Shown: positions 1,993-59,150 of the stretch, in pieces | Numbering within the stretch: the stretch's first letter is position 1 | Layout of the letters: every line of letters begins with the position of its first letter | Assembly: GCA_030390025.1 (NCBI GenBank) | Contig: CM059432.1 | Coordinates: forward strand, 82,276,001 to 82,340,000 | Length of the DNA stretch: 64,000 bases | Reading direction: 5' to 3' | Source of the DNA: Squalus acanthias | Lineage: Eukaryota | The notes under the pieces: generated by a model | Databases searched by the model: none | Told to the model about the DNA's origin: nothing | What the model saw: the letters and a program-made list of their open reading frames with translations, nothing else | Translations under genes and position numbers: made by a program

Positions 1993-2263
1993 GAAAGAGC
2001 AAGAAATAAACAGATAAAAATGCAAGGGGGAGGCTGGGGGGAGGAATAAAAGAACAAAAGGGATGGTCTTTAGTGAGTAGAGACATTGAGAGATGCTCAA
2101 GGCAAGACAAGATGGTAATGGGACAGGTTGAGAAACAAAAGATAAGGTGTGAAATGCTGGCAGAATCAGAGACAGCTGCCGTGGGGGGAGAGAGAGAAAA
2201 AAAGGAAAAAGGCACGGACCAAAAGAGTGGATAAAATGTATACATATGTGGTAGGGGCCGGGG

Positions 2264-3634: not shown

Positions 3635-4028
3635 AAGTTATCCCTGGTGTTCTGGCCAATATTTATCCTTCAATCAACATCACTAAAAAACAGATTGCTG
3701 TTTGTGGAAGCTTGCTGTGTGCAAATTGGCACATTTCCTACATTACAACAGTGACTACACTTCAAAAAAGTACTTTGGGACTTCCGGTGGTCGTGAAAGT
3801 TGTTATATAAATGCAAGTCTTTCTTTCAAAGCGCTTTCTGTACAGTTAATTACTGTGAAGTAGTGGCTGTTACATAAGCAACCGCAGCAGTCATTACATT
3901 TGCAGTAAGATCCAACAAACAATGAGATGAATGGTCAGTTTATTTATTTTTGGTAGTGTTGTTGGTACATATCAGTTGCCAGGACAACTGGGATCTGAAA
4001 TTCCACAGGGATTCTACTGTTCACCCAA

Positions 4029-16534: not shown

Positions 16535-18701
16535 GGGGGGGATTTTAATCCCCAATAATGGATGGGTTGGGGCCGGTGGGAAGGTAAAAAATGTAAAATT
16601 CTATCAACCGACCCCATCCCGCCCACTTCCAGTTTTAACAGAAGTGAATCGGGGAGCGGGCGACCAATCTGCTCTCAGGTGGCAGGTCGATTACTAAAAT
16701 CTTTTAAGGAGGCTGTGTGCCTCCATTTTAACTCAATTCTTATTACTAATGCATCGAGGCCAGGGTTCCCAGCAGGTAAAACGATACGAGAAGGGTTGGA
16801 TCCGTGAGGTAAGTGCCTTTAGTGCACTGCTTGTGGGCCAGGAGGAGCAGGAGTATGGCCGACCCACTCCCCCTACCACAATGTCCTAACCCTCCCATGA
16901 TATCCGTATTCCCCCCACAATATCTGATTCGCCCCAAACCCCCCGGCAATGTCAGACTTATCACTCCCCGGATGATTTCCAGCCTGACAGGAAAATTCTC
17001 CACCTCCCCCCGCGCCCCCCTCCCCCCCCCACTCTCTTCCCGGCTCCGAGTAAATATCGGGGCCCCAGTGTAGGGAGTTCTCGCTCCTTCTGACATGGCT
17101 GGCCTTGTTAGGGACAGGTGGAGGCTCTTCCCCTTACAGGGCCGACCGGGGTTTCCCGACAAATGTCAGGACCCAGTGTATTTTCCAAGCTGATTCGCCG
17201 AACTTGCAGCGAAAATCTACTGGATCAGCTGAGGGAATTCGGCTCCAGGGTTTCTATTTGTACATAACTAAGTCTCAGTGTCAGGCTGGCATCAATGAGA
17301 CGGATTGCACACATGGGTAAAGCAGAGTACATTAGCTACAGCTTAACAGTCTGCACCCATTTCCATTTAATTCTACAGCTGGCATCCTTCATTTTATTCC
17401 AAACAAAGAAACCAGCTGGTATCCCATAGATCACACAGTATCCACTGATATAAAACACAGAAAGATGCTCAAAATACACAGCAGGTCAGACAGCATCTGA
17501 ATGAGAAAGACAGGTTATTATTTCAGAACTGGTAAAAGCTCACAGTTGAAAAGTTTGTCTATCTTTCCTCTTTACAGATGCTGACAAATCTGCTATCTAT
17601 TTTCAATGTTCCTTGTTTTTATTTCTAGTTGGCAGCATTTACAGTTTTTTTCTTTTTATCTGCAGCACTAAATGTTCTTTTCCCAACCTTTTCTGAATAT
17701 TTCCAGCACTAGGTAGCATAGCAGTCAATGTTCCCCCTAATGTTTTTTGGGGGCTGCGTGGCACATTTAAATGTCTGCGCATGTGCGGGTTTTTGCACTG
17801 GGAAGCCGGCTGACCGGCTGCGCGGGACCTCGAGACGGCCATGCAGCTTAAAGGGATGTTGCTGCACTAATGCTAGGGGCTGGATTTTATCAATGGGGGC
17901 GCGTTGGGGGCGGGACTGCTGGTTGTCAGGTTTTAGTCCCGCCCCCAACGACGTCCGGCCAACCCACACTATTTTCCCTTGATTGACCTTGTTAAGCCCG
18001 CCCTTAGCAGGCCAATTAAGGGAAAGCCGGTGACAGAGGACGTCAGCGTATGACGTTTCATCTGTCAAAAATTTTTGACAGATGAATTGTCATCATTTGA
18101 CAGTTTTGAGAAGCTATCAAACACTGACATTCTGTTTTTTGGTGAGTCCTTGCACTGAAGACTCACCAAACCTCTTTCCTCAGCAGAAAGCAGATGGCTG
18201 TTGCATCGGAGAATGCAGCAGCCATTCTGTCATCTCTGCCGTTGAGATGAGGCACCTCCGGATCCCCAAGGGTTGAAGCCTGCAGGATGAAACAAAGGTA
18301 AGTAAACTTTTTCTAACACTTTGCACTCACCTCTCATACTTACCTCTCCACACTTGCACCCATCACTCACCTCCACAACGCACTTTTCGATCCCTCTCAC
18401 CCCCGCAGACCCAATGCTCGCCTCGCTGACCCTGGCGAGGTTCGCAGCCATCGGGAAGCCCTGCACTTGTGTGGGTAAAATGGGGATAAGCCTGTTAACT
18501 GCCTATTAACTACCTGTTAACAGGCAGTTAAATGGCTGTAATCCCCTTCCCACCTCGAGGAGACGGGTCCCTGCACGAGTCGTGGACCCGCCTCCCGGGA
18601 AGATGGCATGGAGGCGGGTTGGGAGCGGGGTTGATACCCGCTCCCAGTTTCTGCCATTTTCCCAGCAGACCCGCCTCTCCAGGGTTGGCAAAATTCCCCC
18701 C
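16535..18701. mobile_element. Cluster of GC-rich MITE-like elements (about 16535-17065 and 17877-18701) plus a short hAT-like MITE at 17726-17861
   Basis: GGGGxxxATTTT-type ends (ggggggattttaa, gggctggatttt, aaaattccccc). 17726-17861 matches 42264-42403. Confidence 0.5.
17452..17645. mobile_element. Decayed fold-back element derived from the PLE tail (related copies at about 18890-18975 and 23945-24075)
   Basis: Inverted arms such as atgctggaaatactcagcaggtcaggcagcatc and gatgctgcctgatcagctgagtatttccagcatt (23955-24056). They resemble the PLE end acgctggaaaaactcagcaggccaggcaacatc. Confidence 0.55.
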
Positions 18702-20205: not shown

Positions 20206-20479
20206 CTGTAAGGAAAATAAAAGCTTATATTTGCATCAAGAAACTCATGTATGTTGTGGAATTTTTTTAAAAATTTGCATAATGCATATATACTTAACTG
20301 ACATTAGAAAAATAGTTGATAACAGAATCACAAGGGAGCTTTCAATCTGTCCTGAGACATTTTGATGGATTTAATTAGACAATAATTATACAATAAAAGC
20401 ACTAAGATTGACCTAACTGTACGTGCACTGCAACAATTAGTATGTTATTCTGAAGGGCAGACTTTCATAAATAATCTGT

Positions 20480-21775
20480 GCATAAGAACATAAGAACATA
20501 AGAAATAGGAGCAGGAGTAGGCCAATCGGCCCCTCGAGCCTGCTCCGCCATTCAATAAGATCATGGCTGATCTGATCCTAACCGCCAATCTACTATCTAT
20601 CACAGAACCATCTCCTGCATCTAACAGAATTGCACACACAAAATAGGAGCAGAATCAGGCTACACAGTCCCTGGGCCCGCTCCACTACCCACAGGGCCAT
20701 GACCGATCCGAACCTAGACTCATGTCCAAATTCCTGCCCGCTCCCCGTAACCCTTAATGCCCTTTACTTCTAGGAAACTGTCTATTTCTGTTTTAAATTT
20801 AATTAATGTTGTAGCTTCTACAGCTTTTTGTGGCAGCATATTCCATGGACCTACCACCCTCTGAGTGAAGTAGTTCCTCCTCATCTCAGTTTTGAAAGAG
20901 CAGCCCCTTATTCTAAGACTATGTCCCCTAGTTCTCGTCTCACCCGTCATCGGGAACATCCTCCCCGCATCCACCCGATCCAACCCCTTCACAATCTTAT
21001 ATGTTTCAATAAGATCGCCTCTCATTCTTCTGAACTCCAATGAGTAGAGTCCCAATCTACCCAACCTCTCCTCATATGACCACCCCCTCATCCCCGGGAT
21101 TAACCGAGTGAACCTTTTTTGCACTGCCTCGAGAGCAAGGATGTCTTTCCTTAAGTAAGGACACCAAAACTGTATGCAGTATTCCAGGTGCGGTCTCACC
21201 AATACCTTGTACAACTGAAGCAATACCTCCCTATTTTTATATTCTATCCCCCTAGCAATGAAAGCCAACATTCCATTTGCCTTCTTAATCACTTGCTGCA
21301 CCTGCATACTATCCTTTTGAGTTTCGTGCACCAGGACCCCCAGATCCCTTTGCACTTCAGTACTCTCCAGTTTCTTGCCATTAAGATAATAAATTGCTCT
21401 AGGATTTTTCCTGCCAAAGTGCATCACCTCACACTTTCCAGTGTTGTATTCCATCTGCCAAATCTCTGCCCACTTACTTAGCCTGTCTATGTCCCCTTGC
21501 AGGTTTTTTATGTCCTCCTCACTCACTACTTTCCCTCCCATCTTAGTATCATCTGCAAATTTTGATATGTTACACTTGGTCCCTTCCTCCAAATCGTTAA
21601 TATAGATTGTAAAGAGTTGGGGACCCAGCACTGACCCCTGTGGAACACCACTAGTTACTGATTGCCAGTCTGAGAATGAACCATTTATCCCAACTCTTTG
21701 CTTTCTGTTAGATAGCCAATCCTCTATCCATGCCAGAATATTACCCCCAATCCCGTGATTTTTTACCTTAAGCAG
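20480..21775 (-). mobile_element. 5'-truncated CR1 LINE with intact RT C-terminal ORF
   Basis: ORF 20720-21823 with GVPQGSVLGP and FADDTK. (TTATGTTC)n tail at 20481-20503. Confidence 0.9.
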
Positions 21776-22865
21776 AAACCAGTAAACTGTAGCTTCACTA
21801 AACTGAAAGGGGCTGAATCGCACTGTTCAGTAATATGGCTGCTGACACTGCTGCTTTCAGTGTCTCAAGACAATTAATAACTTATTTTGTGGAATGCAGT
21901 ATAATCTTTTGCTGTGAAATAACTTAATGACATAATTGTAACTTACTCATTATAATTATAATGTAACTTAGTTTCAGAGGGGTGTCAGATCAGAAGTGGC
22001 CTCATGTGCACATTAGATGCATGTTTTTAAACTTTAAATACAGCCAGACAAAGATATAAAGCAATGTTTCAAAAAAAATGACTGGTACACATTTGTCTAT
22101 AGTCTGGGTGCTGGAACATTCAAAGCTTTGCTTTTTGTGTGTGCAATTTTTAATCTCAGATTAGGAGAAGCAAGTGTAAATTTAACTTTAGGGAGCTGGG
22201 AGCCACATCTAAAATCGTGCTGTAACAGTAATGGAATGTGTCATCAAAGCCTTATAAATAGCAGCAGCCCCAGAAAAACAACTGCTGACTGCTGTGCTCA
22301 AAACAATTCTTCTACAAATTATTCTATAAGAAAAATTACATTCATATAGTGCCTTTATTAAAACATCTCAAAACACTTCACTCAAAGAATTGCTTTTGAA
22401 GTGCAGTGCCTGTGCCAGCAAAGTCTAACAAATAGCAATGGGAAAAATCATTTTTGATGGTATTCGGTGAAGGGAGGAACGTTGGTCACACCCTGTCCTC
22501 TGTTCATCTTCAAATACTGTTGTGGTATCTTTAATACCCTCTTTGGTTTATGTTTCATGTGAAGGACAGCACCTCCCACAAATCAGCAGTCCCTCAGACT
22601 CCATTCACGTCCTGATTGGGGGCTGCAACCACAGTCTTCTGATCCAGAAGCAAGATTACTACCAAATGAGCCAAACTAATATTTATATATGGCTAATAAA
22701 ACCAGTTTAACAACTATCCAGACTTAACATAAAATATATAGCTCTGTTCATGCACCTGTTAACTAACATTGTGCAGAAGTTAAACTTGTACACATTCTTC
22801 AGGAGAAAATAATCAAGATCTGGGACGGGCCACAAGTGTTCTACTAATATTTTAAAAAATTATTA

Positions 22866-23752
22866 GGGGGCTAAATTCGGTTGATTTGCGCCTCCCTAAG
22901 AGGGCGCTAACGAGGCGCAAATCAACTAGCGCCTGGGCGCGGCGCCGCTAACGCCTCCCGCGAAATTCAGCGGGAGGTTAGCGGCGGCGCTAACTGTAAT
23001 ATTGGGTGGCGTCCCCCGACTTACCGGCGGACACTATGTCTGACAGGGTCAGGGGGGGCCTACCTGCGGCCGGGGCAGCGCTAGTTAAAGGGGAGGTGGC
23101 GGGCGGCCATTTTTGTTGCTGGCCGCCTGCCAACACCTGCCTCCGTTGCTGTCCCCGCCCCCCGTGAAGCCCCCCTGCGGGGTGCCGGCTGCTCTCCGTG
23201 AGCCCGGCACTCCTCTTGAGTGCCGGGCTCGTTTGCCGGCACTCTCGATCCCTAGTGGCCCAGCTGGGCGCCGGGACGCGCTGTGCCAGGCCCCTCCCCT
23301 TTAATAAGGGGAGGCAGGCCTGCAGTACTGCGGCACATAGTGCCGCGATATTGGCTCGCAGCGCCCAAGAGGGACACGGGGCGCTTCCAGTAGCGCCCCT
23401 CCTCCCTCTCGGGGCGCTACCTGGGAAAATCGGCCGCGGGGGCATATGGAGGGAGTTATGGGGGAGCCTGGGTGTAGCCCTGCACCTCTGTGCAGTGCTT
23501 GTCAGTGTTTGCAGCACCTCAATGCTGTAGAACACTGACAGCACAACTGTCAAAATCAATTTGCGCATGGTCCCTTTAAGGGACGTCATCTGACCCGCTT
23601 CCTTCAATTGGCCGGCAAACCCGCTGGGTGGGCTTAACAAGCCCAATCAACGTAAAATCATTCTACAGAGCGGGCTGGAGCCAGCAGCGGGGTTGGGACC
23701 CGCCACCGACGTCGCCCGCCACGGACCCGCCGAGGTAGGGGAAATCGCGGCC
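22866..23752. mobile_element. Harbinger-type MITE, about 887 bp, very GC-rich
   Basis: Starts gggggctaaattcgg and ends gaaatcgcggcc, TSD TTA on both sides. Left arm (ttgcgcctccc..aagagggcgctaa..ggcgcaaa..actagcgcc) is shared with the 53480 and 60622 copies. Confidence 0.75.
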
Positions 23753-24079
23753 TTAGTCAGCACCTCTTAAAGGAACACACACACACATCTTTCAGGTAAG
23801 TTTGCATTTAACCTTTTGAACTGGACTTTTTTTATTTTATTGAAGTAGTGGCTTGGTGCAATATATGTTAAAGGTTTTTTAAGTGTGCAGGGAGTGCTGC
23901 TGGACACTTGCAAGGTCTCAGATGGTAAAGGAAGGTCTCTGAGAAGACAGGAAATGCTGGAAATACTCAGCAGGTCAGGCAGCATCCATGGAGAGAGAAA
24001 CAGAGTTCATGTCTCAGGTCCAGATGCTGCCTGATCAGCTGAGTATTTCCAGCATTCTATGCTTTTATTTCAGACTTAC

Positions 24080-27000
24080 ACCGTCTGCAGAAGAGGAAGA
24101 TGCAGAAGTGGAGGAAGCAGAAGGAAGGATGCAATCCAGACAGCCCCTTCCTGGCCAGGATATCTGGGATGGAATCATCCGCCTTCAGAACCAGTGACCA
24201 CAACTCCAATTCGCCTTTCAACATTTGTCCCACACCTTATCCTCCCTCTGTTACTGACCATCACAACGTCCTCTTGGCCACAATGCTGAAATAAAAACCA
24301 ACACAAAGCAAACTTTCCAATCCAACTTCATACATCTATCCCTCCAATATGACATCAAGAAATCAACTCATCACTGTTTTGCATTCCCTTAGTGACTGTC
24401 TTGTGTGTGCCTTTGCCTATCCTAGTGATGTCATGCAGTGCTACCCCAGTAACTGCAGCATGGCTGGTGGAAGGCTGCTGACTTTCAGTGGGCTACACTT
24501 CAAATGGCCTTGTTGGTCGACCTTGAGAAGCTGGTTGCTGGGAGTGTGAAATCGAGTGACGGTGTTTCTTCTTCTTCTTCTCCTTCACTCTCTTCTCCAT
24601 TTTCTTGGTGACCCACTGGCTGGGCATGCTGCATTTTTTGGGTGTGTAAAATGAGGGAGGCACAAGGGTGGAGTTGTGGTGAGGGGAGGGCGGGAAAGCA
24701 AGAGGTGCATGCGAGAAGGAGGATAACGTATGAGGATACCCGCATCTTGTATCCTTTCAGCCCCGCCGCTGGCCAAGGGCTCAGCCATGGCCCCTGCCAA
24801 GAATGGTCTGCACCGTCTCCGCCAAGGGGGTGAGGTGAAGCTAGTAATGGGAGGTGTGCCTCGTGTTTGGCACAGATTGTTGGTAGGTGAGTAATTGGAC
24901 AGGGGGTTGGGGGTGATGGTGGAGATTGGTCGTGCATTGTGAAGTGTGTGAGGCTAGTGGTGCAGTTGGTAGGAGAAGGCTTTTGAAGATGCATTCACTG
25001 ACCTTGACCACTGGTCTGAGGTCATGAAGCTTCCTTGGGCATTGCTGGTAATGACAGCATCGGTGAAGTGGTCCCACATCGTTCTTTCTGGAGAGCCTCC
25101 TGGCCCTTGTTGGTAGAGGACATCTCTTACAGTGTTGGCCCCCTGCACAAAGCTGGAATGCTGCAACGAGACCCTGGGTGCCCCTTCCCCGGCTTGCTGA
25201 GCCATTTGTGTTAGTACTGATGAGCTAGTTGAACGTCTCAGAGACTCCCCTTGTGGAATAAACGAACGCCTCATGACTCTATGGCTCGCCCTAGCCCGGA
25301 ACCAGTACGCTACGGTCATCAGTGCGTACGCCCCAATACTGGAAGCCACCGACGAGATCAAAGAGGAATTCTACTCCAGCCTCGTACAATCCCTGTCCCA
25401 AGTCCCAACGGGCGACAAGCTGATCCTCCTTGACGACTTCAACGCCAAAGTTGGAAAGGACACAGCCATCTGGGGAGGTGTGATCGGCAGAGAGGGGGTA
25501 GGGAAAGCCAACTCCAACGGTACCTTCCTCCTGATGAAATGCTTAGAACATGGCCTTGTCATAACCAACACCTTGTTCTGTCAGAGAGACAAGTACAAGG
25601 CTTCATGGCAACACCCTCACTCCAAGCACTGGCATCTGTTGGACTACGTCATCGTTCGAGCGAGGGACCGCAAGGACGTCCGCATCACCCGCGCCATGAC
25701 AGGAGCTGACGACTGCTGGACAGACCACCGCCTAATCCGCTCTGTCATCTCCATCAATGTAGCCCCAAAACAGCGGTGGCAACAGAAGCAATGCCACAGG
25801 AAAATCAACGCTGGAGCACTCAAAGACCCTGCCAAAAAAGCCCTATTCAGCCTGCGCCTCACAACCAACCTGACGACTCCCAGGGATTCAGAGACAGAGT
25901 GTCCACAGCGCCTGGTCTGCACTCAAGGCCTCCATAATCAGCACCTGTGAAGAGACGCTCGGTCACTTGAGCAGGAAACACCAAGACTGGTTCGACGAGA
26001 ACGACCAGGAGATCCAGGAGCTAATAAACCGCAAGCGCAAGGCATTCCTGATCTGGAAACAGCAACAGAACTCGAGAGCAAGAAAGCAGCTCTACCGATG
26101 CCTGAAGGCCGAGGTCCAACAAAAAACTCGCGACCTAAAGAACAGATGGTGGGTGGAGAAAGCGCAGGAGATCCAGCAGCTAGCCGACAACCATGACGTG
26201 CGTGGATTCTTTAGCGCAGTCAAGACCATCTACAGCCCAAGCACCCAAGGTCCTACCCCACTGCGGGCCAAGAACGGAGAGGTACTCATCAAGGACAGGG
26301 AGGCAGTCAGTGCCCGCTGGAAGGAGCACTTCGAAGATCTCCTTAACCAAGACTCTGTCTTCGACGCGAGTGTCCTCAACTCCATCCCACAGCATGCTAC
26401 CCGCCACCACCTCAGCACAACCCCAGCCCGGCATGAGGTTGAAAAGGCCATCCGACAACTGAAGAACAACAAGGCCTCAGGAGCAGATGGAATCCCCGCT
26501 GAGGCGCTAAAACATGGCGGAGAAGCATTATTGGCGCGAATACATGAAATAATTTCTCTTATTTGGAAGGAGGAGAGCATGCCAGGGGGTCTCAGAGATG
26601 CCGTAATCGTGACCATCTTCAAGAAAGGTGACAAGTCCGATTGCGGTAATTACAGAGGAGTCTCCCTGCTGTCTGCCACAGGAAAAGTCATCACAAGAAT
26701 CCTCCTCAATTGTCTTCTCCCAGTGGCCGAAGAGCTCCTCCTAGCGTCGCAATGCGGATTCCGCCCACTAAGGGGCACAATGGACATTATCTTCACCGCG
26801 CGTCAACTACAAGAGAAATGCAGGGAGCAGCACCAACTGCTGTACATGGCCTTCTTTGACCTCACAAAGGCCTTCGTCACTGTCAACCGTGAGGGATAAT
26901 GGAGTGTCCTCCTCAAATTCGGCTGCCCTCAAAAGTTTGTCACCATCCTCTGCCTGCTTCACGACGACATGCAAGCTGTGATCCTGACCAACGGATCCAC

Positions 27001-28644
27001 CACGGACCCAATTCACGTACGGACCGGGGTCAAGCAAGGTTGTGTCATTGCACCAATGCTCTTCTCGATCTTCCTGGCTGCAATGCTCCATCTCACCCTC
27101 AGTAAGCTCCCTGCTGGAGTGGAGCTAATCTACAGAACAAACGGGAAACTGTTCAACCTCCGTCGCCTCCAGTCCAGATCCAAGGTCGTCCAATCCTCTG
27201 TCATTGAATTACAGTATGCAGACGACGCTTGCGTCTGCGCACACTCTGAGGCCGAAATCCAAAATATCGTCAACACCTTCACCGAAGCATACGAGAGCAT
27301 GGGCCTTACACTAAACATCCGTAAGACAAAGGTCCTCTACCAACCTGCCCCCGCCACACAGTACTGCTCCCCGATTATCAAAATCCATGACGAGGCCTTG
27401 GATAACGTGGAACCTACTGTCAACAAGGGCAGACGTCGATGACGAAGTCCAACACCGCCTTCAGTGTGCCAGTGCAGCCTTCGGTCGCCTGAGGAAGAGA
27501 GTGTTTGAAGACCAGGGCCTCAAACTCAGCACCAAGCTCATAGTCTACAGAGCAGTAGTGATACCCGCCCTCCTGTATGCTTCAGAGACATGGACCATGT
27601 ACAGCAGGCATCTCAAAGCACTGGAGAGGTACCACCAACGCTGCCTCCGCAAGATCCTGCAAATCCATTGGCAGGATAGGCGCACCAACATCAGTGTTCT
27701 CTCTCAGGCCAACATCCCCAGCATCGAAGCTTTAACCACGCTCGATCAGCTCCGATGGACGGGCCACATCGTTCGCATGCCCGATACGAGACTCCCAAAA
27801 CAAGCGCTCTACTCGGAGCTCCGACACGGCAAGAGAGCCCCAGGTGGGCAGAGGAAACACTTCAAGGACACCCTCAAAGCCTCCTTGAAAAAGTGCAACA
27901 CCCCACCGACACCTGGGAATCCCTGGCCCAAGACCGCACAAAGTGGAGGAGAAGCATCCGGGAAGGCGCCGAACACCTCGAGTCTCTTCGCCGGGAGCAA
28001 GCGGAAGCCAAGCGCAAACAGCGGAAGGAGTGCACGTCAACCCAAGCACCCTGCCCACCCGTCCCTTCAACCACCGTCTGCCCCACCTGTGACAGAGACT
28101 GTAGGTCCCGCATTGGACTCATCAGTCACCTGAGAACTCATTTTTAGTGTGGAAGCAAGTCATCCTCGGTTCCGAGGGACTGCCTAAGGAGAAGAAGATG
28201 CACTTTTCCCATTTTTTTAGATGCGGAAGGGAATTTAGCTTTAAGAGCTGAAGACTCCCATTTGGGAATTCTTTTCAATGGTTTTTTTTTCAGAATGCAG
28301 TCGAGCTGTAAAGGCTAAAAACTGCCTATTTTTACATGGTTTTCAGTCTTTTCATTTCAGAAGGCAATTCTCCTTTAAAACAGCGAAGTGCTTTCTGAAA
28401 TGACAGTCTTGCATTGAGAGAAGGCTGTTCTAGCTGCAATGACGCTACGGCCACGCTACATTGGGGCCTTCTGCTGGGACGAGCACCACCAGGACAGCGT
28501 TGCACTGAGGTTAGCGCTGGACTAATGTTAATTAGACCTCAGTGCCAATTTTTCGGTCCTGCCAGCGCCACCATTTTCGGCGGCCGTTAACACCCGCCCG
28601 CGGTGGCACCGGCAACTTTTGTGGCATTCACGAATTTCTAGGCC
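24080..28644. mobile_element. Internally deleted Harbinger remnant (24080-25225 and 28200-28644) interrupted by an RTE LINE
   Basis: Transposase C-terminal acidic tail on + (EEEDAEVEEAEGRMQSRQPL...IIRLQNQ) and Myb-like remnant on - (MAQQAGEGAPR...), both similar to the 55611-59652 element. Right end cgaatttctaggcc. Confidence 0.7.
25230..28198 (+). mobile_element. RTE-clade LINE, 5'-truncated, frameshifted
   Basis: APE (ISAYAP, DFNAKVG, LDYVIV, TDH), WFDEND linker, RT (FFDLTKAF, GVKQGCVIAP, LQYADD), C-terminal CPTCDRDCRSRIGLISHLRTH. Short 3' UTR with hairpin cctcggttccgagg and (GAA)n tail. Confidence 0.9.
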
Positions 28645-28655
28645 AAATAGTTTAA

Positions 28656-30172
28656 ATGATCAACCCGGCCAATTTCTGTCCCATCAGTCTACTCTCAATC
28701 ATCAGAAAAGTGATGGAAGGTGTCGTCGACAGTGGTATCAAGAGGCACTTACTCACCAATAACCTGCTCACTGATGCTCAGTTTGGGTTCTGCCAGGACC
28801 ACTCGGCTCCCGACCTCATTACAGCCTTGGTCCAAACATGGACAAAAGAGCTGAATTGCAGAGGTGAGGTGAGAGTGACTGCCCTTGACATCAAGGCAGC
28901 ATTTGACCGAGTGTGGCATCAAGGAGCCCTAGTAAAACTGAAGTCAATGGGAATGAGGGGAAAAAACACTCCACTGGCTGGAGTCATACCTAGCACAAAG
29001 GAAGATGGTTGTGGTTGTTGGAGGTTAATCATCACAGCCCCAGGACATCGCTGCAGAAGTTACTCAGGGCAGTGTCCTAGGCTCAACTATCGTCAGCAGC
29101 TTCATTAATTACCTTTATTGGACACTAAGAAAATCAAGGGATATGGGAATAGGGCGGGAAAATGGAGTTGAGGTAGAAGATCAGACATGATCTTACTGAA
29201 TGGCGGTGCAGGCTCGAGGGGCCTACTCCTGCTCCTATTTCTTACGTTTCCTTCATCATAAGGTCAGAAGTGGGGATGTTTGCTGATGACTGCACAGTGT
29301 TCAGTTCCATTCAGAATTCCTCAGATAATAAAGCAGTCCATGCCAGCATGCAGCAAGACCTGGACAACATCCAGGCTTGGCCTGATAAGTGGCAAGTCAC
29401 ATTCGTGCCACACAAGTGCCAGGCAATGACCACCTCCAACAAGAGAGAGTCTAACCACCTTCCCATGGCATTCAATGGCATTATCATTGTCGAATCCCCC
29501 ACCATCAACATCCTGAGGGTCACCATTGACCAGAAACTTAAATGGACCAGCTACATAAATACTGTGGCTACAAGAGCAGTTCAGAGGCTAGGTATTCTGC
29601 GGTGAGTGTCTCACCTCCTGACTCCCCAAAGCCTTTCCACCACCTACAAGGCACAAGTAAGGAATGTGATGGAATACTCTCCACTTGCCTGGATGAGAGC
29701 AGCTCCAACAACACTCAGGAAGCTTGACACCATCCAGGACAAAGCAGCCTGCTTGATCTGCACCCCATCCACCACATTAAACATTCACTCCCTCCACCAC
29801 CGGCGTACCGTGGCTGCTGTGTGTACCATCTACAAGATGCACTGCAGCAACTCAAGGCTTCTTCGACAGCACCTCCTAAACTCACGATCTCCAACACCTA
29901 TAAGGACAAGGGCAGCAGATGCATGGGAACACCAGCGCCTCCAATTTTCCCTCCAAGTTGCACACCACCCTGATTTGGTAGTATATCACCGTTCCTTCAT
30001 CACCGCTGGATCAAAATCCTGGAACTCCCTCCCGAACAGCACTGTGGGCGTAGCGTCACCACGCACACTGCAGCGATTCAAGAAGGCAGCTCACCACCAC
30101 CTTCTCAAGGGCAACTAGGGAAGGACAATAAATGCTGGCCTTGCCAGCTATGCCCACATCCCATGAATGAAT
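28656..30172 (+). mobile_element. CR1-superfamily LINE of a second lineage, 5'-truncated, with a short CR1 3' tail inserted at about 29115-29248
   Basis: RT motifs PISLLSII, QFGF, LDIKAAFDRVWH and MFADD. 3' end gggcaactagg...aataaatgctggccttgccagc...cccacatcccatgaatgaat. Confidence 0.85.
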
Positions 30173-30289
30173 TTTTAAAAATCCCTAATTTATGATGCAA
30201 TGCCATTTGTTTGACAGATGATGGCACTGTTGCAGTGCAGAAACACATGAATGATTTGTACCTTGTGGTTTCTACTCAGTTGCAGTTCA

Positions 30290-30592
30290 GATCATAGAAT
30301 CATAGAATGTTACAGCACAGAAGGAGGCCATTCAACCCATCGTGCCTGTGTCGGCTCTTTGAAGGAGCAATCCAATTAGTCCCACTCCTCTGCTGTTTCC
30401 CCATAGCCCAGCAATTTTTTCCATTTCAAGTATTTATCCAATTCCCATTTGAAAGTTGCTATTGAATCTGCTTCCACCACCCTATCAGGCAGTGCATTCC
30501 AAATCTAAACTTACTGCGTAAAAATGTTTTCCCTCATGTCGCCAATGGTGCTTTTACCAATTACCTTAAATCTGTGTCCTCTGGTTACTGAC
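30290..30592 (-). mobile_element. CR1 3' fragment
   Basis: (ATTCTATG)n tail, similar to 4029-4340. Confidence 0.75.
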
Positions 30593-31140
30593 CCACAGAA
30601 TCATAAAACCATAGAAAGTTACGGCACAGAGAGGCCATTCGGCCGAAAAAGAGCTACCCAGCCTAATCCCACTTTTCAGCTCTTGGTCCGTAACCTTGTA
30701 GGTTACGGCTCTTCAACTGCATATCCAAGAACTTTTTAAATACGATGAGTGTTTCTGCCTCTATCACCCTTTCAGGCAGAGTTCCAGACCCCCACCACCC
30801 TCTGGGTGAAAAAGGTTCTCCTCAACTCCCCTCTAATCCTTCTACCAATTACTTTAAATCTATGCTCCCTGGTTATTGACCTCTCTGCTAAGAGAAATAG
30901 GTCCTTCCGACCCACTCTATCTAGGCCCCTCATAATTTTATACACCTCAATTAAATCTCCCCTCAGCCTCCTCTGTTCCAAAGAAAACAACCCCAGCCTA
31001 TCTAATCTTTCCTTACAGCTAAGTTTTCCAGTCCTGGCAACATCTCGTAAATCTGCTCTGTACCCTCTCTAGTACAATCATATCTTTCCTGTAATATGGT
31101 GACCAGAACTGTACGCAGTACTCTAGCTGTGGCCTAACTA

Positions 31141-31391
31141 CAGTAAACTCTTGTTTAAACGGCACTTAATCATCCGGAATTCTTTAATAACCGGCAAAAT
31201 AGATAACCGGTAATCTTGCCGAATCCATCCATTTTTCATTTTTCCGAGTCCGAGTTTCCTGCGGTGGCCGAGTTAGTCACTGGTTTTTACTTTTTTTCTG
31301 TTAAAAATTGCCTACCTCTCTGTTATCTAGAATTTTTCATCAACCGGCACCATCCTGGTCCCGTAGGTGCCGGATACGAAAGAGTTTACTG
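31141..31391. mobile_element. Tc1/mariner (Tigger/pogo-like) MITE
   Basis: TIRs cagtaaactcttgtttaaacggcac and gtgccggatacgaaagagtttactg. TA duplicated, and removal restores the CR1 sequence ggcctaacTAgtgtttta. Confidence 0.85.
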
Positions 31392-31629
31392 TAGTGTTTT
31401 ATATAGTTCAAGCATAACCTCCCTGCTCTTATATTCTATGCCTCGGCTAATAAAGGAAAGTATCCCGTATGCCTTCTTAACCACCTTATCTACCTGTCCT
31501 GCTACCTTCAGGGATCTGTGGACATGCACTCCAAGGTCCCTCTGTTCCTCTACACTTTTCCGTATTCTACCATTTATTGTGTATTCCCTTGCCTTGTTAG
31601 CCCTCCCCAAATGCATTACCTCACACTTT

Positions 31630-32515
31630 ATTTTATTCGTTTATGGGATGTGGGCGTCGCTGGCAAGGCCAGCATTTATTGCCTATTCCTAATTGCCCTT
31701 GAGAAGGTGGTGGTGAGCCGCCTTCTTGAACCGCTGCAGTCTGTGTGGTGAAGGTACTCCCACAGTGCTGTTAGGTAGGGAGTTCCAGGATTTTGACCCA
31801 GTGACGATGAAGGATCGGCGATATACTTCTAAGTCAGGATGGTGTGTGACTTGGAGGGGAACTTGGAGGTGGTGGTGTTCCCATGCGCCTGCTGCCCTTG
31901 TCCTTCTAGGTGGAAGAGGTCGCGGGTTTCGGAGATGCTGCCGAAGAAGCCTTGAGTTGCTGCAGTGCATCTTGCAGATGGTACACACTGCAGCCACGGT
32001 ATGCCGGTGGTGGAGGGAGTGAATGTTTAATGTGGTGGATGGGGTGCCAATCAAGCGAGCTTCTTTGTCCTGGATGGTGTCGAGCTTCTTGAGTGTTGTT
32101 GGAGCTGCACTCATCCAGGCGAGTGGAGTGTATTCCATCACACTCCTTACTTGTGCCTTGTAGATGGTGGAAAGGCTTTGGGGAGTCAGGAGGTGAGACA
32201 CTCGCCGCAGAATACCTAGCCTCTGACCTGCTCTTGTTGCCACAGTATTTATGTAGCTGGTCCATTTAAGTTTCTGGTCAATGGTGACCCTCAGGATGTT
32301 GATGGTGGGGGATTCGGCGATGGTAATGCCATTGAATGTCAAGGGGAGGTGGTTAGACTCTCGCTTGTTGGAGATTGTCATTGCCTGGCATTTCTGTGGC
32401 GCAAATGTTACCTGCCACTTATCGGTCCAAGCCTGGATGTCGCCCAGGTCTTGTTGCATGTGGGCATGGACTGCTACATTATCTGAGGAATATTGAATGG
32501 CGCTGAACACTGTGC
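31630..32515 (-). mobile_element. 3' fragment of the second CR1-superfamily LINE (same family as 28656-30172)
   Basis: ORF 31689-32555 is highly similar to ORFs 29270-30118 and has the same 3' end. Confidence 0.88.
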
Positions 32516-33890
32516 ACTCTCCAGATTGAATTCCATTTGCCGCTTTTCTGCCCACCTGACCAGTCCATTGATATCTTCCTGCAGTCTACAGCTTTCTTCC
32601 TTACAATCAACCATACGGCCAATTTTTTGTATCATCTGCACACTTCTTAATCATGCCCTCTACATTGAAGTCTAAATCATTGATATATACCACAAATAGT
32701 AAGGAACCTAATAGTTAGCCCTGCGGAACCCCACTGGAAACAGCCTTCCAGTCACAAAATACCCGTCGACCATTACCCTTTGTTTCCTGTCACTGAGCCA
32801 ATTTTGGATCCAACTTGCCACTTTCCCTTGGATCTCATGGGCTTTTACTTTTCTGACCAGTGTGCCATGTGGGACATTGTCAAAAGCCTTGCTAAAATCC
32901 ATGTAGACTACATCAAACGCACTACCCTCATCGACCCTGAAGTTAGTCAGACACGACCTTCCCTTAACAAATCCATGCTGACTGTCCTTGATTAATCCAT
33001 GCCTTTCTAACTGACGATTAATATTGTCCCTCAGAATTTTTTCCAATAATTTTCCCACCACTGAGGTTAGGCTGACTGACCTGTAATTACTCGGTCTATC
33101 CCTTTCTCCCTTTTTAAACAACGGTACAACGTTAACAGTCCTCCAGTCCTCCGGCATCACACCTGTAGCCAGAGAGGATTGGAAAATGATGGGCAGAACC
33201 TCCGCAATTTCCTCCCTTGCTTCTCTTAACAGTCTGGGATACATTTCATCCAGGCTTGCTATTTATCTACTTTCAAAGATGCTAAACCACTGAATATTTC
33301 CTCTCTCACTGTGTTTATCTCATCAAATATTTCACTCCTCTTGCTTAACTATAATGTCTACATCGTCCCTCTCACTTGTGAAGACAGACGCAAAGTATTC
33401 ATTAAGAACCATGCCCACGTCTTCCGCCTCCACACACAGGTTACCTTTATGGTCCCTAATAGGCCCTACTCTTTCTTTAGTAATCTTCTTGCTCTTTGTG
33501 TATTTATAAAACTTCTTTGGGTTTGCCTTGATTTTACTTGCCAATATTTTTTTCATGCCCTCCCTTTGCTTTCCTAATTTCCTTCTTAATTTAGCAAAAG
33601 TGGACTGGAAACAGCTACTTGAAGATAAATCAGTGTCAGAGCAGTGGGAGTCATTCAAGGAGGAGATAATGAGGGTTCAGAACAAATATGTTCCCAGAAA
33701 GAAAAAGGGTGGGACTCCCAAATATACAGCCTCCTGGATGTCAAGGAGCATACAGGGTAGGATAAGACAAAAAAGGGAAGCTTATGTCAGATACCCTGCA
33801 CTTTTTATACTCCTCTAAGCTTTCTGCAGTATGTAGCTTCCCGTATCTGACATAAGCTTCCTTTGTATGGCCTAATCTCTACACTGTTCT

Positions 33891-34350
33891 AAAGAAAGAA
33901 AGACTTGCATTTATATAGTGCCTTTCACAATCTCAGGACGTCCCAAAGCGTTTTACAGCCAATGAAGTACTTTTGAAGTGTAGTCACTGTTGTAATGTAG
34001 GAAACACAGCAGCCAATTTGTGCACAGCAAGCTCCCACAAACAGCAATCTGATAATGACCAGATAAGCTGTTTTTAGTGATGTTGATTGAGGAATAAATA
34101 TTGGCCAGGACACCGGGGATAACTCCGCTGCTCTTCTTGAAATATTGCCATGGGATCTTTTACCTGAGAGAATAGACTTGGTTTAATGTCTCATCCGAAA
34201 AGTGGCACCTCTGACAGTGCAGCACTCCCTCAGTACTGTCCTGGAGTATCAGCCTAGATTTTTGTACTCAAGTCTCTGGAGTGGGACTTGAACCCACAGC
34301 TTTAACTGACTCCGAGGCGAGGGTGCTACCACCTGAGCCACGGCTGACAC
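33891..34350 (-). mobile_element. Full-length DeuSINE/SacSINE1-like
   Basis: Head gtgtcagccgtggctcaggtggtagc...gggttcaagtccc (A and B boxes), Deu-like core and (CTTT)n tail. Confidence 0.85.
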
Positions 34351-34718
34351 TAAGAATAACCCGAGTTTATCTAGTCTCTCCACGTAACTAATAAAGATAG
34401 TAAAACACAGAACTGTAAATAATTTCAGAAACAGACTTGCAAATCAAAATAATTAAACTCTGTTGGGCAGGTTTTTGACTTTACCACTGGGGCGTTAAGC
34501 ATCACCTGGCTGGAGTGCAGGGAGAGAAATCAAGCGCAGAATAAAGTCGCCTGATATTTCTTTCAGTCAACTTAATGGGTGCAAAATTTGGCAGCCTCCT
34601 TTAGGGATGTGCAATCCTCCCATCTGAATTTCACTCTCTGTGCCCTGCCCATGTGATAATTAATGTCCAGAAGGCAAAGTTGAAACCTACTAACAGATCC
34701 CATGGCACTATTTCAAAG

Positions 34719-34933
34719 GTCGCACAACACCAGGTTATAGTCCAACAGTTTTATTTGAAATCACAAGCTTTCGGAGCTATCGATTTGCTCCTTCCTCAGG
34801 TCACCTGAGGAAGGAGCAAATCGATAGCTCCGAAAGCTTGTGATTTCAAATAAAACTGTTGGACTATAACCTGGTGTTGTGCGACCTCTCAATTTTGTCC
34901 ACCCCAGTCCAACACCGGCATCTCCGCATCATG
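34719..34933 (+). mobile_element. Non-coding PLE-derived mini-element (second pLTR family) with a perfect inverted repeat
   Basis: 12-bp TSD actatttcaaag (34707-34718 and 34934-34945). Palindrome 34717-34887 centred on 34802, with a hammerhead motif and AATAAA in the arm. Confidence 0.8.
34801..34843 (+). ncRNA. Minimal type I hammerhead ribozyme motif
   Basis: UCAC-CUGAGGA-A-GGAGC(aaaucgaua)GCUCC-GAAAGCUU-GUGA. Stem I UCAC/GUGA, stem II 5 bp, palindromic AGCU in place of stem III, predicted CUU cleavage triplet. Confidence 0.75.
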
Positions 34934-35872
34934 ACTATTTCAAAGAGCAGGGGAGTTCTCCCCAGTGTCCTGGCCAATATTTATCCCTCAACCAACATCC
35001 CAAAACAGATTATCTGGCCATTATCACATTGTTGTTCATGGGAGCTTGCTGTGTGCAAATTGGCTGCTGTGTTTTCTACATTACAACAGTGACTACACTT
35101 CAAAAGTACTTCATTGGTTGTAAAGCGCATTGGGGCATCCTGAGGTTGTGAAAGGCACTAAATAAATATAAGTTCTTTATTTCTTCTTTACTCGTATGAA
35201 CTGACTAGAAACCTACCCTTATGGACTTAATAAACAAATGCATGCTCAAAATTTACGATTCTGTAAATGGACATAATTGCTGATGGCCATAAATTGAACA
35301 GGAAGAATTAATTCTACGTATGGAGCAATACTGAAAGTTTCAGCTAAACCTTTCTTTATTTCTGTTTTTCTATTTGAATATTTTTATCCCATCTGGCTAT
35401 GGACATGGGGGAGATGAATTTCCATTTTTGCAGGATTCTGTGGCTCTTCCAGAGAAGTTACAGTGGACGAGTTGAAACCCCCCCTCCCCCCCGCAGAAAG
35501 TTATCCTAAGGTAGTCCGAAAGTCTGATGGTACTGAGTCAGCATTCACAGTTGGAGGATGTGCCTATATAACAGTCACATATAAATGCAACTATTTCCTT
35601 TGTTTTATTTTATAGTTCAATGAGTATATGGTGACTTGGGCCTTCTCAGCCTTTGCCAATGCTGCTCTGTATTAATTAGAAGATCTGCTAGAATTGCCAG
35701 TGAATGACTCTTCCAACTTTCCTTCCCTCACAATGCAAAAGAAAAGCCTGGTTTCTGCTAGAAGCCTCGCCAAGATGATTGAGCATGCATGAAATTGTAG
35801 AAGCACCCATATGTTCGAAAACTCCATGTAACAATGCACTGTCCTTCAGTGAGCTCCCTCATGCTTCCTTAG

Positions 35873-36320
35873 GTGTTAGACATGGCTTGGTGGTAGCCTC
35901 TGAATCAGAAGGTTGTGTGTTCAAGTCCCACTGCAGAGGCTTGAGCGCAAAATTTAGGCTGACACTCCAGCGCAGTACCGAGGGAGCACTGCACTGTCAG
36001 AGGTGCCTTCTTTCAGATGAGATGTTAAACTGAGGTCCCGTCTGCTCTCTCAAGTGGACATAAAAGATCCCATGGCACTATTTCGAAGGAGAGCAGGAGA
36101 GTTCTCTCCGGTGTCCAGGCCAATATTTATCCCTCAACCAATAGCACTAGAATTGATTATCTGGTCATTATTACTTTGCTGTTTGTGGGATCTTGCTGTG
36201 CAAAATTGGCTGCCGCGTTTCCTACATTACAACAGTGACTACACTTCAAAGGTACTTTATTGGTTGTAAATCGCTTTGGGACATCCTGAGGTTGTGAAAG
36301 GCACTACAGAAATGCAAATC
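35873..36320 (+). mobile_element. DeuSINE/SacSINE1-like, near full length
   Basis: Decayed tRNA head, Deu-like core and L2-like tail. Confidence 0.85.
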
Positions 36321-36556
36321 TTCCAAATATTTCTGTCATTGCTCAGCACCATTCCACCCCCGAGTTTGAACTAAACAAAACTAATTAAGCCAAGAAAATA
36401 CTCATCAAGGGCATCACAGACCCATACCCTGCTCTTGTAGAACTTACACATATGATGTACCACCGTATCAGTTAAACTGCATTTAAAATATTTTTTAAAC
36501 ATATGTAACTTTACTAAGTATTCACTACTAGGCTATGTAAGAACCTAGTCACTTAC

Positions 36557-36621
36557 CAAGGGTTCGTAAGAGAACAAATTGCATACCCAGCGCAAAAGGT
36601 CTCTCCTGATCTTCTACAGAC
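36557..36621 (-). CDS. SLCO5A1: SLCO5A1 short coding exon, 65 bp (too short for the ORF track)
   Basis: Read directly from the minus strand: G TCT GTA GAA GAT CAG GAG AGA CCT TTT GCG CTG GGT ATG CAA TTT GTT CTC TTA CGA ACC CTT G = SVEDQERPFALGMQFVLLRTL. Acceptor ttttag, donor gtaagt, joins both neighbours in frame. Confidence 0.93.
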
Positions 36622-37415
36622 CTAAAACAGAAAAGTATTTAATTTAATTTGTTCAATTATGCCATGAAAAATCATACTAGCGTTGAGAGCACAAGGACAC
36701 TGTTTTGTACAGGCCGTCTCTAATCCTCAAATTGACCGCACAGCCCCACACTGAGGTGTTCATGCACAGCTACTGAAGGCTGTTTTAAAAAAAATCACAT
36801 ATTTCTCCTTTTTTTTGAAGTAATTCATTTCTCGCACCAATTTCCTTCGAATAAGGAGGGCAGGTGACCTGTTCCAAGGTCTCCATCATTCCTGCTTTAT
36901 AGCTGAGGACAGGGATGAGCAGGGAATATTTCCTCACTACTCGTTGGACAGTACTTCACCAATGCTTTAGTCCTTCCCTCTTTCCTCATCAAAGTAGAAG
37001 GGGGAACATAGTGTGCTGCTAAACCCCTGGACACGCTGAAAGTAAAGGCAGAGATGTTTAAGCAGACTACATTTTAGTAAGAATGTCACTTACTGAAAAC
37101 TAAATAACCCTGGGGCTGTTTGATACCTATTATACCCGATGTGTGAGCAAGATAACTCATTTCCTATTTATCTCCCTTCAGTGCCACCTGGGACAAAAAT
37201 GTATCCAAGCATTCATTTACAGCTGGGTGAGCGTGATCTAGTATCAGACAGCAACAATGTGGCTGGGAGTACAGAACCAGATTTAGCTGTGCCCAAGTGA
37301 CATACTAGAATAGAAATTGCAAAATCACATGCTCCGAGTAGCAATTATGACAATTATTGGCATCTGAGTTTAAAAAAGAAAATTAGTCGGCACAAAACAA
37401 GTAAAAGATTAGAAT

Positions 37416-38085
37416 GATAGCAAAATACTGCGGATGCTGGAAAATTGAAACAACAACAGAAAACGCTGGAAAAACTCAGCAGGCCAGGCAACATCCGTGG
37501 AGAGAGAAACAGAGTTAACATTTCAGGTCGAAACCCTTCGTCAGAACTGAGAAAAAAGCAGGAAATGAAACAGATAAAAAAGCAAGGGGGAGGCTTCACC
37601 ATCCTCGGCCTCGTGCATTGTTCCACGGAAGCTCAGCATAAGCTCGAGGAACAGCACCTCATCTTTCGTTTAGGCACTTTACAGCCTTCTGGACTCAATA
37701 TCCAGTTCAACAATTTCAGATCATAACCTCGGCCCCTACCACATATATATACATTTTATCCACCCTTTTGTTTCGTGCCTTTTTCCTTTTTCTTCTCTCT
37801 CTCCCCCTACGGCAGCTGTCTCTCATTCTGCCAGCATTTCACACTTCACCTTTTGTTTCTTAACCTGTCCCATTACCATCTCGTCTTGCCTTGAGCATCT
37901 CTTAATGTCTCTACTTACCATAGTTATTCCTCCCCCCAGCCTCCTCCTTGCTTTTTTATCTGTTTCATTTCCTGCTTTTTTCTCAGTTCTGAGGAAGGGT
38001 TTCGACCTGAAACGTTAACTCTGTTTCTCTCTCCACGGATGTTGCCTGGCCTGCTGAGTTTTTCCAGCGTTTTCTGTTGTTGTTT
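37416..38085 (+). mobile_element. Short PLE copy: inverted pLTR followed by ORF C-terminus and 3' tail
   Basis: 14-bp TSD taaaagattagaat (37402-37415 and 38086-38099). Encodes TILGLVHCSTEAQHKLEEQHLIFRLGTLQPSGLNIQFNNFRS as in ORF 2264-3577. About 37448-37595 is the inverse of about 37938-38085. Confidence 0.9.
37985..38020 (+). ncRNA. Minimal type I hammerhead ribozyme motif (inverse copy at 37513-37548 on -)
   Basis: AGUU-CUGAGGA-AGGGU(UUCG)ACCU-GAAACGUU-AACU. Intact CUGANGA and GAAA cores, stem I AGUU/AACU, palindromic ACGU, predicted GUU triplet. Confidence 0.75.
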
Positions 38086-38834
38086 TAAAAGATTAGAATA
38101 TTCATTCTCGGGATGAGGGTGTTGCTGGGAAGGCCACTCCTAGATGTCCTGTGTGGTGGTGGGCCTTCTGGTACAGCAGTTTGATACAGTTGAGTGGCTC
38201 GCTAGGCCACTTCAGTTAAGAGTCAACAACGTTGGTGTGGGGCTGGCTTCACATATAGGTTAGACCAGGTAAGGACGGCAGGTTTCCTTCCCTAAAGAAC
38301 ATTAGCGAACCAGTTGGATTTTTATGACAATCCGACAGCTTCATGGTCAATTTTTTTTACTGATAGCAGTTTTTCATTTCTAGATTTCCTAAACTAAATT
38401 CAAGTTGTCAATCTGCCATGGTGGGATTTGAACTCACATTCTCTGGATTACACATCGAGTAGCATAGCCAGTAAACTACCATAGGTGGCCAACTGGAAGA
38501 CTACACATCTGATTGCCAGTTGTTATAGGGAATAATAAATAGCGTAACTGTTGTTTAATAATAGAGGTGTTCAGGTGATATCAAGACCACAAGTGAGGTT
38601 TATGAATGTCATCATAACTAAAAGGCTAGACACAACTTGAAATGACATAATTCTCAGATGTTAAATATATTATGTACCAGATAACTTCTCCTTTCAGCAA
38701 CTGTGCTGTACCTGGAAGCTGTGTTAGATCAGGACCTCATGGACGTGTTGCATATCAGCTATTAGAGACAACTTTTGTAGCATGTGGCTGCTATGCTTTT
38801 GTTGGTGACTAAGCTGCTTTCTCCTCAACATGAG

Positions 38835-49129: not shown

Positions 49130-49315
49130 GAGAGTGAAATTGGACTTTGGCAGTAGTGTGAACTGGGTGATAATGAATTGGCAGCTTGTTTTACAATGTG
49201 CCCAATTTGCTTTTCGTTTGAAGTCAATGGAAAAGAAAATCATGTGCGGTGTAAAATGGGCTGCCGATTCACTATCGCCCATGTTGGGCTACCGCCAAGG
49301 ACCAATTTCACCTTT
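49130..49315. mobile_element. Small MITE (related fragment at about 45807-45880)
   Basis: Inverted ends gtgaaattggactttggcagtag and ctaccgccaaggaccaatttcac, probable TSD ACA. Confidence 0.6.
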
Positions 49316-58002: not shown

Positions 58003-59150
58003 TCACTGGTACCACAGTCGGATCAGTCGATCACGGACCGCCTGGACAGAATGTGGCTGTCTGAGTTGGCTCCTCCCTTTCTGCTCCTCCTCTTCCGCTT
58101 CCTCCTGCTTCTCCTCTTCCTCAGCTGGGTACCTTACGCCTGGTGGCAAGGGCTGTGCCCTCATGATGGCGAGGTTGTGGAGCATGCAGCAGACCACGAC
58201 AAAGCTTGAGACGCACTCTGGCAAGTACTGCAGGGCTCCTCCAGAGCGGTCCAGGCAGCAGAGGTGTCGTTTAAGCAGGCCAATGGTCTGCTCTACCAGA
58301 TTCCGTGTGACAGCATTGCTTTCATTGTATGCATGCTGCCCACGTGTGCGTGGGTTACGCAGCGGAGTCATGAGCCAGGTGGTCAGCGGATAGCCCTTGT
58401 CACCCAGTAACCACCCTCTGGTTTGTCGTGGTGGTTCAAATGCTGATGGTACAGCGGACTGTCACAGAATGAAGGCATCATGACTGCTGCCAGGATACCG
58501 AGCATTGACCTGCATGATGCGCTGAGTATGGTCACACACCAGCTGGACATTGAGGGAGTGGAATCTCTTCTGGTTGTGGTGCGTCTCCGAATTGAGATGC
58601 GGTGCCCACAAAGCGACATGTGTTCAGTCAGTGGCACCCTGCACCATGGGGAAGCCTGCTATCCTGGTGAAGCCACGTGTTCGCTCCGTCTCCTTTCTCT
58701 GGCAAGAGAGAATGAAATGTATTCAGCTCTCATTGTATACAGAGCCTCACTCACCTCCCTTATACAGGAGTGGACGGTGAACTGGGAGATGTTACAGATG
58801 TCGCCTGCTCCAGCCTGGAGGAGCCCGACGCGAAGAAGTTCAAGGCCACGGTCACCTTCACAGCCTCTGGCAATGCCGTCCTCGCCCTGGACTGAGGCGG
58901 CAGGTCTGTCTGCAGCAGGTGGCAGATTTCAGTGAGCACCTCCTTAGTAAAACACAGACATCACATGCACTGTTTGTCGCTGAGGTTGAGGTAGGAGAAT
59001 TGCTCCCTGAAGACCCTGGGTGGATATGGCCTCCTGCTGAAAGCCCTTCTCCCCCTCCTTCTTCTGCCTCTTCATGCAGCTTGTCCTGCTCTGTGTCGCC
59101 TCTGCTCATTCTCCCTGTCATGCTGCAGGCCAAGGGGGTTACAAACTACT
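58003..59150 (-). pseudogene. Harbinger (HARBI1-like) DDE transposase, disabled
   Basis: Motifs AGFPMVQGATD*TH, FHSLNVQLVCD, YPGSSHDAFIL, LLGDKGYPL, MTPLRNP and VEQTIGLLK...CCMLHNL. In-frame stops are present. Confidence 0.88.

Follow-up and report, generated by a model that had tools for sequence, protein, structure and literature searches.

A perfect hammerhead-bearing palindrome in a Squalus acanthias intron as a probable doubly truncated PLE insertion

Here we asked what kind of event produced a perfect palindrome with a hammerhead ribozyme motif at its centre, which lies in an intron within a window of 64,000 nucleotides of Squalus acanthias DNA (GCA_030390025.1, contig CM059432.1; all positions are those of this window). 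The palindrome could represent a mobile element in its own right that is organised around the ribozyme, or the remnant of a more ordinary insertion. Our analyses indicate that it is most likely explained by the known anatomy of insertions of Penelope-like retroelements (PLEs). At a probability of roughly 0.85, we consider the insert to be a single PLE insertion in which both copies were cut short, that is, the ordinary leftover of a common repeat.

Table 1. Coordinates of the insert, its target site and neighbouring features
Feature	Positions	Strand	Basis or remark
Last intron of OATP/SLCO gene	20206..36556	-	OATP and Kazal exons, flanking exons
Host repeat (abundant, short interspersed), 5'-truncated and interrupted by the insert	34689..35175	+	Window copies
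Left 12-bp target-site duplication	34707..34718	+	AT-rich; last 2 bp complete the left arm
Left arm, read as an inverted, 5'-truncated pLTR copy without tail	34717..34801	-	85/85 complementary to 34803-34887
Head-to-head junction, centre C34802	34801..34803	.	T34801 assignable to either copy
Minimal type I hammerhead motif	34801..34843	+	Core CUGAGGA at 34805, predicted cut after U34839
Right arm, read as a direct, 5'-truncated pLTR copy	34803..34887	+	Arm complementarity, family abundance
AC-rich tail, 46 bp, one side only	34888..34933	+	Ends in ATG at 34931-34933
Right 12-bp target-site duplication	34934..34945	+	Matches left copy
Insertion of second PLE family	37402..38099	+	14-bp duplication, 29-bp tail, 151-bp arms, ORF C-terminus, hammerhead-like core

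Anatomy of the insert and its target site

A sequence-only reading of this DNA had described perfect 85-bp arms, a 12-bp target-site duplication, a position inside a SINE and recent mobilisation, all of which our analyses upheld (Table 1). Each of the 85 arm positions is complementary to its partner around C34802, and the second-best perfect arm of the window, as determined by an inverted-repeat search with loops of 0–10 nt, is 18 bp long. The RNA fold of the palindrome has a predicted energy of -166.4 kcal/mol (z -25.6), a value equalled by 0 of 200 shuffles. The 12-mer ACTATTTCAAAG was found twice, with 12 of 12 positions identical, and a chance check detected a 12-mer shared at the spacing of the duplication at 19 of 20,000 random window positions. 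The two copies therefore define the insert as 34719–34933 (215 bp), the outermost 2 bp of the left arm belonging to the duplication as well. The duplicated site includes ATT at 34710–34712. External to the palindrome is the one-sided tail, which had been called unique; neither it nor the palindrome monomer has a second copy within the window, but contig cover revealed that the tail is common in the element's family.

The repeat split by the insert is one that we take to be a SINE on the basis of its copy pattern, and five further copies with 74–88% identity are present in the window. Six copies that retain the insertion site were chosen by context out of 27 loose motif matches, and their alignment showed five to be empty and one filled. 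No tRNA gene was found in the host repeat by ARAGORN.

These features bear on whether the palindrome is a fold-back chimera created during assembly. Perfect palindromes are a known library artefact, and no contig bridges the exact junction of the locus among 32 of 241,419 pieces. However, such an artefact is very improbable given the exact 12-bp duplication on both sides, the one-sided tail, the five empty sister sites and the presence of axis-crossing contigs in two separate samples. The lack of differences in 85 arm pairs and the perfect match of the duplication fit a young insertion, although zero differences in 85 pairs are by simple arithmetic still compatible with up to ~3.5% divergence, and arm-to-arm conversion could be an alternative cause of the arm identity.

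Family abundance, junctions and parent element

Contigs of four sequencing runs, out of 24 runs with part of the locus, were aligned to 34780–35379; the counts for runs X1 and X6 are saturated and the figures for X5 come from 55% of that run. The summed contig depth of the monomer peaked at 5.9 million in X1 versus 13.1 for the unique flank, at 7.4 million in X5 versus 18.3, and reached 1.6 million versus 5.7 in a related species (organism B). Those depths are of the same order as that of the SINE, and although a sum of depths is not a copy number, the monomer excess over single copy is more than 13,000-fold after division by 31 for overlapping contigs. As a repeat, the pLTR monomer is very abundant both in two samples and in one related species.

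Contigs of all four runs cover the tail well, and its length in the family is 42–46 bp. Other copies, among the contig ends and joints listed, have tail-less 3' ends at 34891/34892, and the outer end of the left arm falls 4–6 nt short of those ends. Tail-less copies were also observed joined to the same SINE position (joints 34891–34934 and 34892–34943) in both samples, at depths of 120–271. We do not claim a SINE hot spot, as rough arithmetic indicates that ten or twenty matches per base can be due to chance with repeats of such abundance.

At the locus itself, the contig in samples S1/S2 ends at 35148. The orthologous flank is covered in organism B, where cover is missing at 34780–34819, and the putative RNA run has no cover at 34780–34799 or on the unique flank; a gap in cover does not equate to absence in either case. 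The orthologous right flank of organism B (35133–35379) differs by 5 substitutions and 2 gaps over 245 bases.

The depth across the palindrome axis was 1,262 and 928 at 34796, and 2,309 and 1,886 at 34800. This represents 0.16–0.38% of the depth at 34817, in the hammerhead, and ~50–96 times the single-copy depth before correction for overlapping contigs. Junctions near stem I of the hammerhead do recur. Two variant axes were identified among the joints listed, each in one contig: the first has five letters added behind 34800 (~22 times single-copy depth), the second has five letters missing at 34796 (~8 times), and by our reading of the letters one of them appears to use a 3-nt TCA overlap. 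It had been suggested that the locus might belong to a retrozyme-like non-autonomous family, with recurrence of the fold-back point as a check. The exact point accounts for less than 0.4% of the family depth, with other axes and 3' ends among the joints listed. The low axis-crossing depth and the two other axes therefore argue, among those joints, against a mini-family with a fixed axis, and by the same rough measure a centre and both ends are not shared by most copies.

This has consequences for the possibility of a dedicated palindromic mini-element, a non-autonomous 215-bp unit that is copied in trans by PLE proteins and whose centre is fixed at stem I. The uncorrected axis depth, the recurrence of two nearby axes and the ability of pLTRs to drive mobilisation in trans (described in PMC3846280) are all in keeping with such an element. 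We nevertheless consider it improbable, based on the small proportion of the family depth at the core that the axis represents, the several bases that separate the axes, and the 85-bp hairpin, which would be a poor template and would conceal the pLTR.

A non-LTR retrozyme, in which a hammerhead repeat yields circular RNA, is highly improbable. The size of the insert is near the published 150–450 bp, its GC content is 46%, its duplication is large, and retrozymes derive from PLE pLTRs (PMC7229834; bioRxiv 10.64898/2026.07.22.740005). However, the retrozymes described in those two sources are head-to-tail repeats with at least two hammerheads on the same strand, whereas no head-to-tail units that each have a hammerhead were found at the locus or within the window, the number of tandem arrays in 33000–38500 was 0, the two cores are in opposite orientation, and the motif is minimal rather than canonical with its fold blocked. 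With no tandem unit and an axis at ~0.2–0.4% of the family depth, the suggestion of a retrozyme-like family was not sustained.

Searches for the parent ORF gave one match to a 30-aa in-frame peptide, which was spurious, and three candidates for a 40-aa frame, none of which was significant. The expected start or pLTR peptide was present in 0 of the 120 listed of 127 PLE proteins obtained with the RT of a second PLE family as query, and pattern scans of viral, metagenome and prokaryote collections returned 0 matches. A 4,818-aa horsehair worm repeat protein was rejected as the parent because its score was spread over 15 repeats. No paper with the sequence of the pLTR family was found among open literature listings. 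The ATG at the tail end is possibly the start of the parent ORF, and a single contig that continues beyond 34933 has 15 letters in frame with this ATG, six of which also match the SINE, so that the extension does no more than hint at an ORF start.

As the parent ORF was not found, membership of the class of endonuclease-bearing PLEs rests on non-coding features. These are a pLTR with a minimal type I hammerhead motif, a neighbouring inverted copy on the 5' side that is itself 5'-truncated, two alternative 3' ends within the family alongside a one-sided tail, and the 12-bp target duplication at an AT-rich site with ATT and five empty sister sites. The layout, the motif and the inverted copy support the earlier proposal of a PLE pLTR origin, and the term "fold-back product" that accompanied it fits the inverted-copy layout. 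MITEs and fold-back DNA transposons have inverted repeats at both termini, and the insert does not fit that class, as 46 bp on one side extend beyond its inverted repeat.

The window also contains the second PLE family, whose RT and GIY-YIG frame at 2264–3634 gave weak Pfam matches, below the cut-off, and whose RT retrieved 127 RT-bearing relatives at an E value of 1e-20 or less. In its insertion at 37402–38099, the inverted 151-bp copy carries the tail, the arms are 97% identical, and 342 unpaired bases lie between them, placing the junction away from a perfect fold-back. Hammerhead-like cores are present at 37989 (+) and 37544 (-), nowhere near that junction. Since an ORF-bearing family has an inverted copy, a tail and a duplication, the palindrome-type layout arises from a demonstrable PLE in the window.

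Several other features of the window were recorded. A 5'-truncated member of the second PLE family at 1880–3648, with an open RT-GIY-YIG frame of 456 codons and a 14-bp duplication, sits in another copy of the SINE that hosts the palindrome, 22 bp from the SINE position into which the palindrome was inserted. Older hairpin-like remnants with no duplication found occur at 23947–24090 and 17471–17603, the first of which is related to the end of the second PLE family (87%), and a decayed 88-bp palindrome (72%) at 49134–49311 had no kinship to either PLE end in the searches run. A GC-rich tandem repeat at 800–1260 has open frames in six of six readings, and a frame at 58003–58461 (-) resembles what we presume to be a piece of a Harbinger-type transposase.

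Hammerhead motif and double-stranded RNA

On the plus strand, the motif comprises in order UCAC, CUGAGGA, an unpaired A, the 5-bp stem II, GAAA, AGCU, U34839 and GUGA. Stem I has four Watson-Crick pairs, or seven counting wobble pairs, some of which are supplied by junction bases. Stem II opens with G-C, the unpaired A being ahead of it, and the palindromic AGCU occupies the place of stem III. A descriptor built from the traits given for minimal PLE hammerheads in PMC4209133 had its sole window match at 34805 and 0 matches in 100 shuffles, supporting the presence of a minimal hammerhead as a sequence motif. The descriptor missed the cores of the second PLE family because it demanded C11.1. The check with Rfam hammerhead models that had been recommended gave no match, as those models were absent from the 16 and the 2 weak matches of two Rfam searches. 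Matches to miRNA families were rejected, all being far under their gathering scores and reflecting the hairpin.

RNA folding indicated that the behaviour of the motif depends on its context. In the isolated core, the predicted pair probabilities of the stems were mostly 0.97–0.99, with one of 0.82, in the monomer with tail they were 0.45–0.67, and in the full palindrome those of stems I and II were 0.0 on both strands. Imposing the ribozyme fold on the palindrome carried a penalty of 65.5 kcal/mol, and the sequence-only description of an element "built around a hammerhead" was therefore overstated. It had also placed the core on both strands. The conserved letters are indeed on both, but stem I of the minus strand, which is the strand transcribed with the host gene, is interrupted by a G-G mismatch following its first two pairs. 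Cofolding two cores, for which the program is a weak test, gave no dimer hammerhead fold. As the stems are at 0.0 in the palindrome and stem I of the minus strand is broken, the motif is inherited and is predicted to be silenced by the hairpin, which would apply to any read-through transcript.

The exons of the host gene are on the minus strand, near 43.3 kb, at 36557–36621 (65 nt) and, for the last exon, from 20205, so that the insert falls in the last intron, with the splice donor of the 65-nt exon ~1.6 kb away. We take SLCO5A1 as the identity of this gene as a lead only, from a third-ranked Atlas cluster name (0.91). Of the proposed hairpin in SLCO5A1 pre-mRNA, then, the long double-stranded RNA hairpin in an OATP/SLCO intron stands, whereas the gene name has the status of a lead. 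The 85-bp duplex has 48 adenosines on the minus strand and, by analogy with other self-folding repeats, could plausibly serve as an ADAR substrate. Stronger duplexes are predicted elsewhere in this transcript. Two SINE copies in inverted orientation (33903–34135 and 34943–35173, 89–90% identity), one on either side of the insert within the intron, would produce a duplex that exceeds the palindrome in length, at -359 kcal/mol, and the arms of the second PLE would form one at -277 kcal/mol. The counts of A-to-G and T-to-C places were equal in the putative RNA run and the DNA runs (6 and 9), and are uninformative for editing at the locus.

Insertion model and comparison with known systems

In a doubly truncated PLE insertion, a PLE protein would have made a staggered cut, ~12 nt wide, in the AT-rich SINE site. 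Of the two nicked strands, one would have primed cDNA synthesis at the tail end (34933, the outer start site) and the other at the inner start site (~34885–34887), which shares 2 nt of microhomology with the target. Each cDNA would have stopped near the 5' foot of the hammerhead (~34801–34803), followed by head-to-head joining, which was probably aided by the local inverted repeat TCA-CC-TGA at 34801–34808, and gap filling would have yielded the target duplication. Both copies stop inside the pLTR, and therefore no coding sequence is left and the whole insert is a hairpin. The hammerhead would be a passenger from the pLTR, its fold replaced by the 85-bp hairpin in read-through transcripts. In this scheme, we infer the PLE parent and the order of priming.

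Within the PLE reading, we lean slightly towards joining of two separately primed cDNAs. This is because the outer end of the left arm is 4–6 nt from the tail-less end and overlaps the target by 2 nt, favouring a second priming event. The one-base loop favours a hairpin-guided joint. A doubtful but possible route is snap-back self-priming, whereby the tail-primed cDNA folds at a small hairpin by the hammerhead core and copies itself, without a second priming. The one-base loop and perfect arms would also suit that route, as would, on our reading, the variant axis with the TCA overlap, and junction palindromes have been interpreted as self-priming in PMC3846280. However, an arm copied in this way would end so near the tail-less 3' end at a random stop only about 1 time in 10 by simple arithmetic, and the one-sided tail and unpaired bases between the arms of the second PLE family are not given by plain snap-back.

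A rather improbable extension is that junctions cluster at the 5' foot of stem I, which would be either a self-priming site or the point where a short template RNA from the pLTR has its 5' end, and that the resulting hairpins form a patterned, hammerhead-centred class of mini-elements, which would seed double-stranded RNA across introns in the thousands and might silence the parent via ADAR or Dicer. A precedent for a short template, by a promoter start or an intron end, has been described for D. virilis Penelope (PMC4209133).

As one among very many PLE stumps, the single locus matters little. Its value is as a clean, young signature of PLE insertion, comprising two 3' ends, a one-sided tail, a head-to-head joint and empty sister sites. 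In addition, junction positions could be counted across so abundant and young a shark family, which would bear on two-primer joining versus snap-back and on the origin of the inverted ends of PLEs. If its hairpins were widely edited or diced, they would add to the double-stranded RNA load of the host, an effect already described for repeats.

The layout of the palindrome is familiar from described PLEs. An inverted copy and a tail are given as standard PLE traits in PMC8557442 and PMC8969392, and direct and inverted pLTRs, a 31-bp tail at one end, duplications of 8–10 bp and junction palindromes were described in PMC3846280. The insert resembles these inverted-pLTR-plus-tail PLEs (Arkhipova et al. 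2013, PMC3846280; Craig et al. 2021, PMC8557442) in its head-to-head pLTRs, one-end tail, duplication, junction palindrome and a tail that possibly reaches the ORF start region. It differs from the elements described there in its 12-bp duplication (versus 8–10 bp), its family tail length of 42–46 bp (versus 30–40 bp) and in both copies ending inside the pLTR with no coding sequence.

Similarities also exist to PAc, a Poseidon PLE of Anolis carolinensis (Frangieh et al. 2024, PMC11167929), in the two nearby 3' ends that define an AC-rich tail, the AT-rich ATT target and the hammerhead motif in the pLTR. In the in vitro experiments of that report, the tail was defined by a pair of adjacent start sites of reverse transcription, cutting and extension of both strands took place at AT-rich sites with ATT, and hammerhead cleavage was dispensable. 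The ORF of PAc starts at stem II of the hammerhead, with RT starting 111–118 nt into it, whereas the sole candidate ATG of the palindrome is at the tail end. The tail of the palindrome can pair with the pLTR body by two overlapping options, 34857–34865 with 34906–34914 (9 bp) or 34873–34879 with 34910–34916 (7 bp), either of which puts the inner 3' end in a loop, an arrangement reminiscent of the AC-rich stem-loop where the RT of PAc starts.

The motif is comparable to the minimal hammerheads of metazoan PLEs (Cervera and De la Pena 2014, PMC4209133) in its short helix I, the unpaired base between 9 and 10.1, G10.1-C11.1 and the palindromic letters of stem III, with a helix II of 5 bp here versus 7–8 bp for Schistosoma. 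Those minimal hammerheads were poorly active even as dimers, and such motifs cleave poorly or require protein (PMC4209133; PMC11167929). Pairs of motifs on opposite strands were already described in PMC4209133, at a spacing of 100–700 bp, whereas the two cores of the palindrome nearly touch; no shark sequence was found in the text and supplementary material searched. Like the metazoan non-LTR retrozymes, the insert is short, non-coding, hammerhead-bearing and related to PLE pLTRs, but it consists of one head-to-head pair. Finally, the palindrome has counterparts among ADAR-substrate repeats, since heavy editing has been described for lizard Penelope and for a palindromic Harbinger of frog (Porath et al. 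2017, PMC5625713). It shares with the palindromic repeats described there its self-folding nature and a length of ~200 bp, the editing being documented for the repeats of that study.
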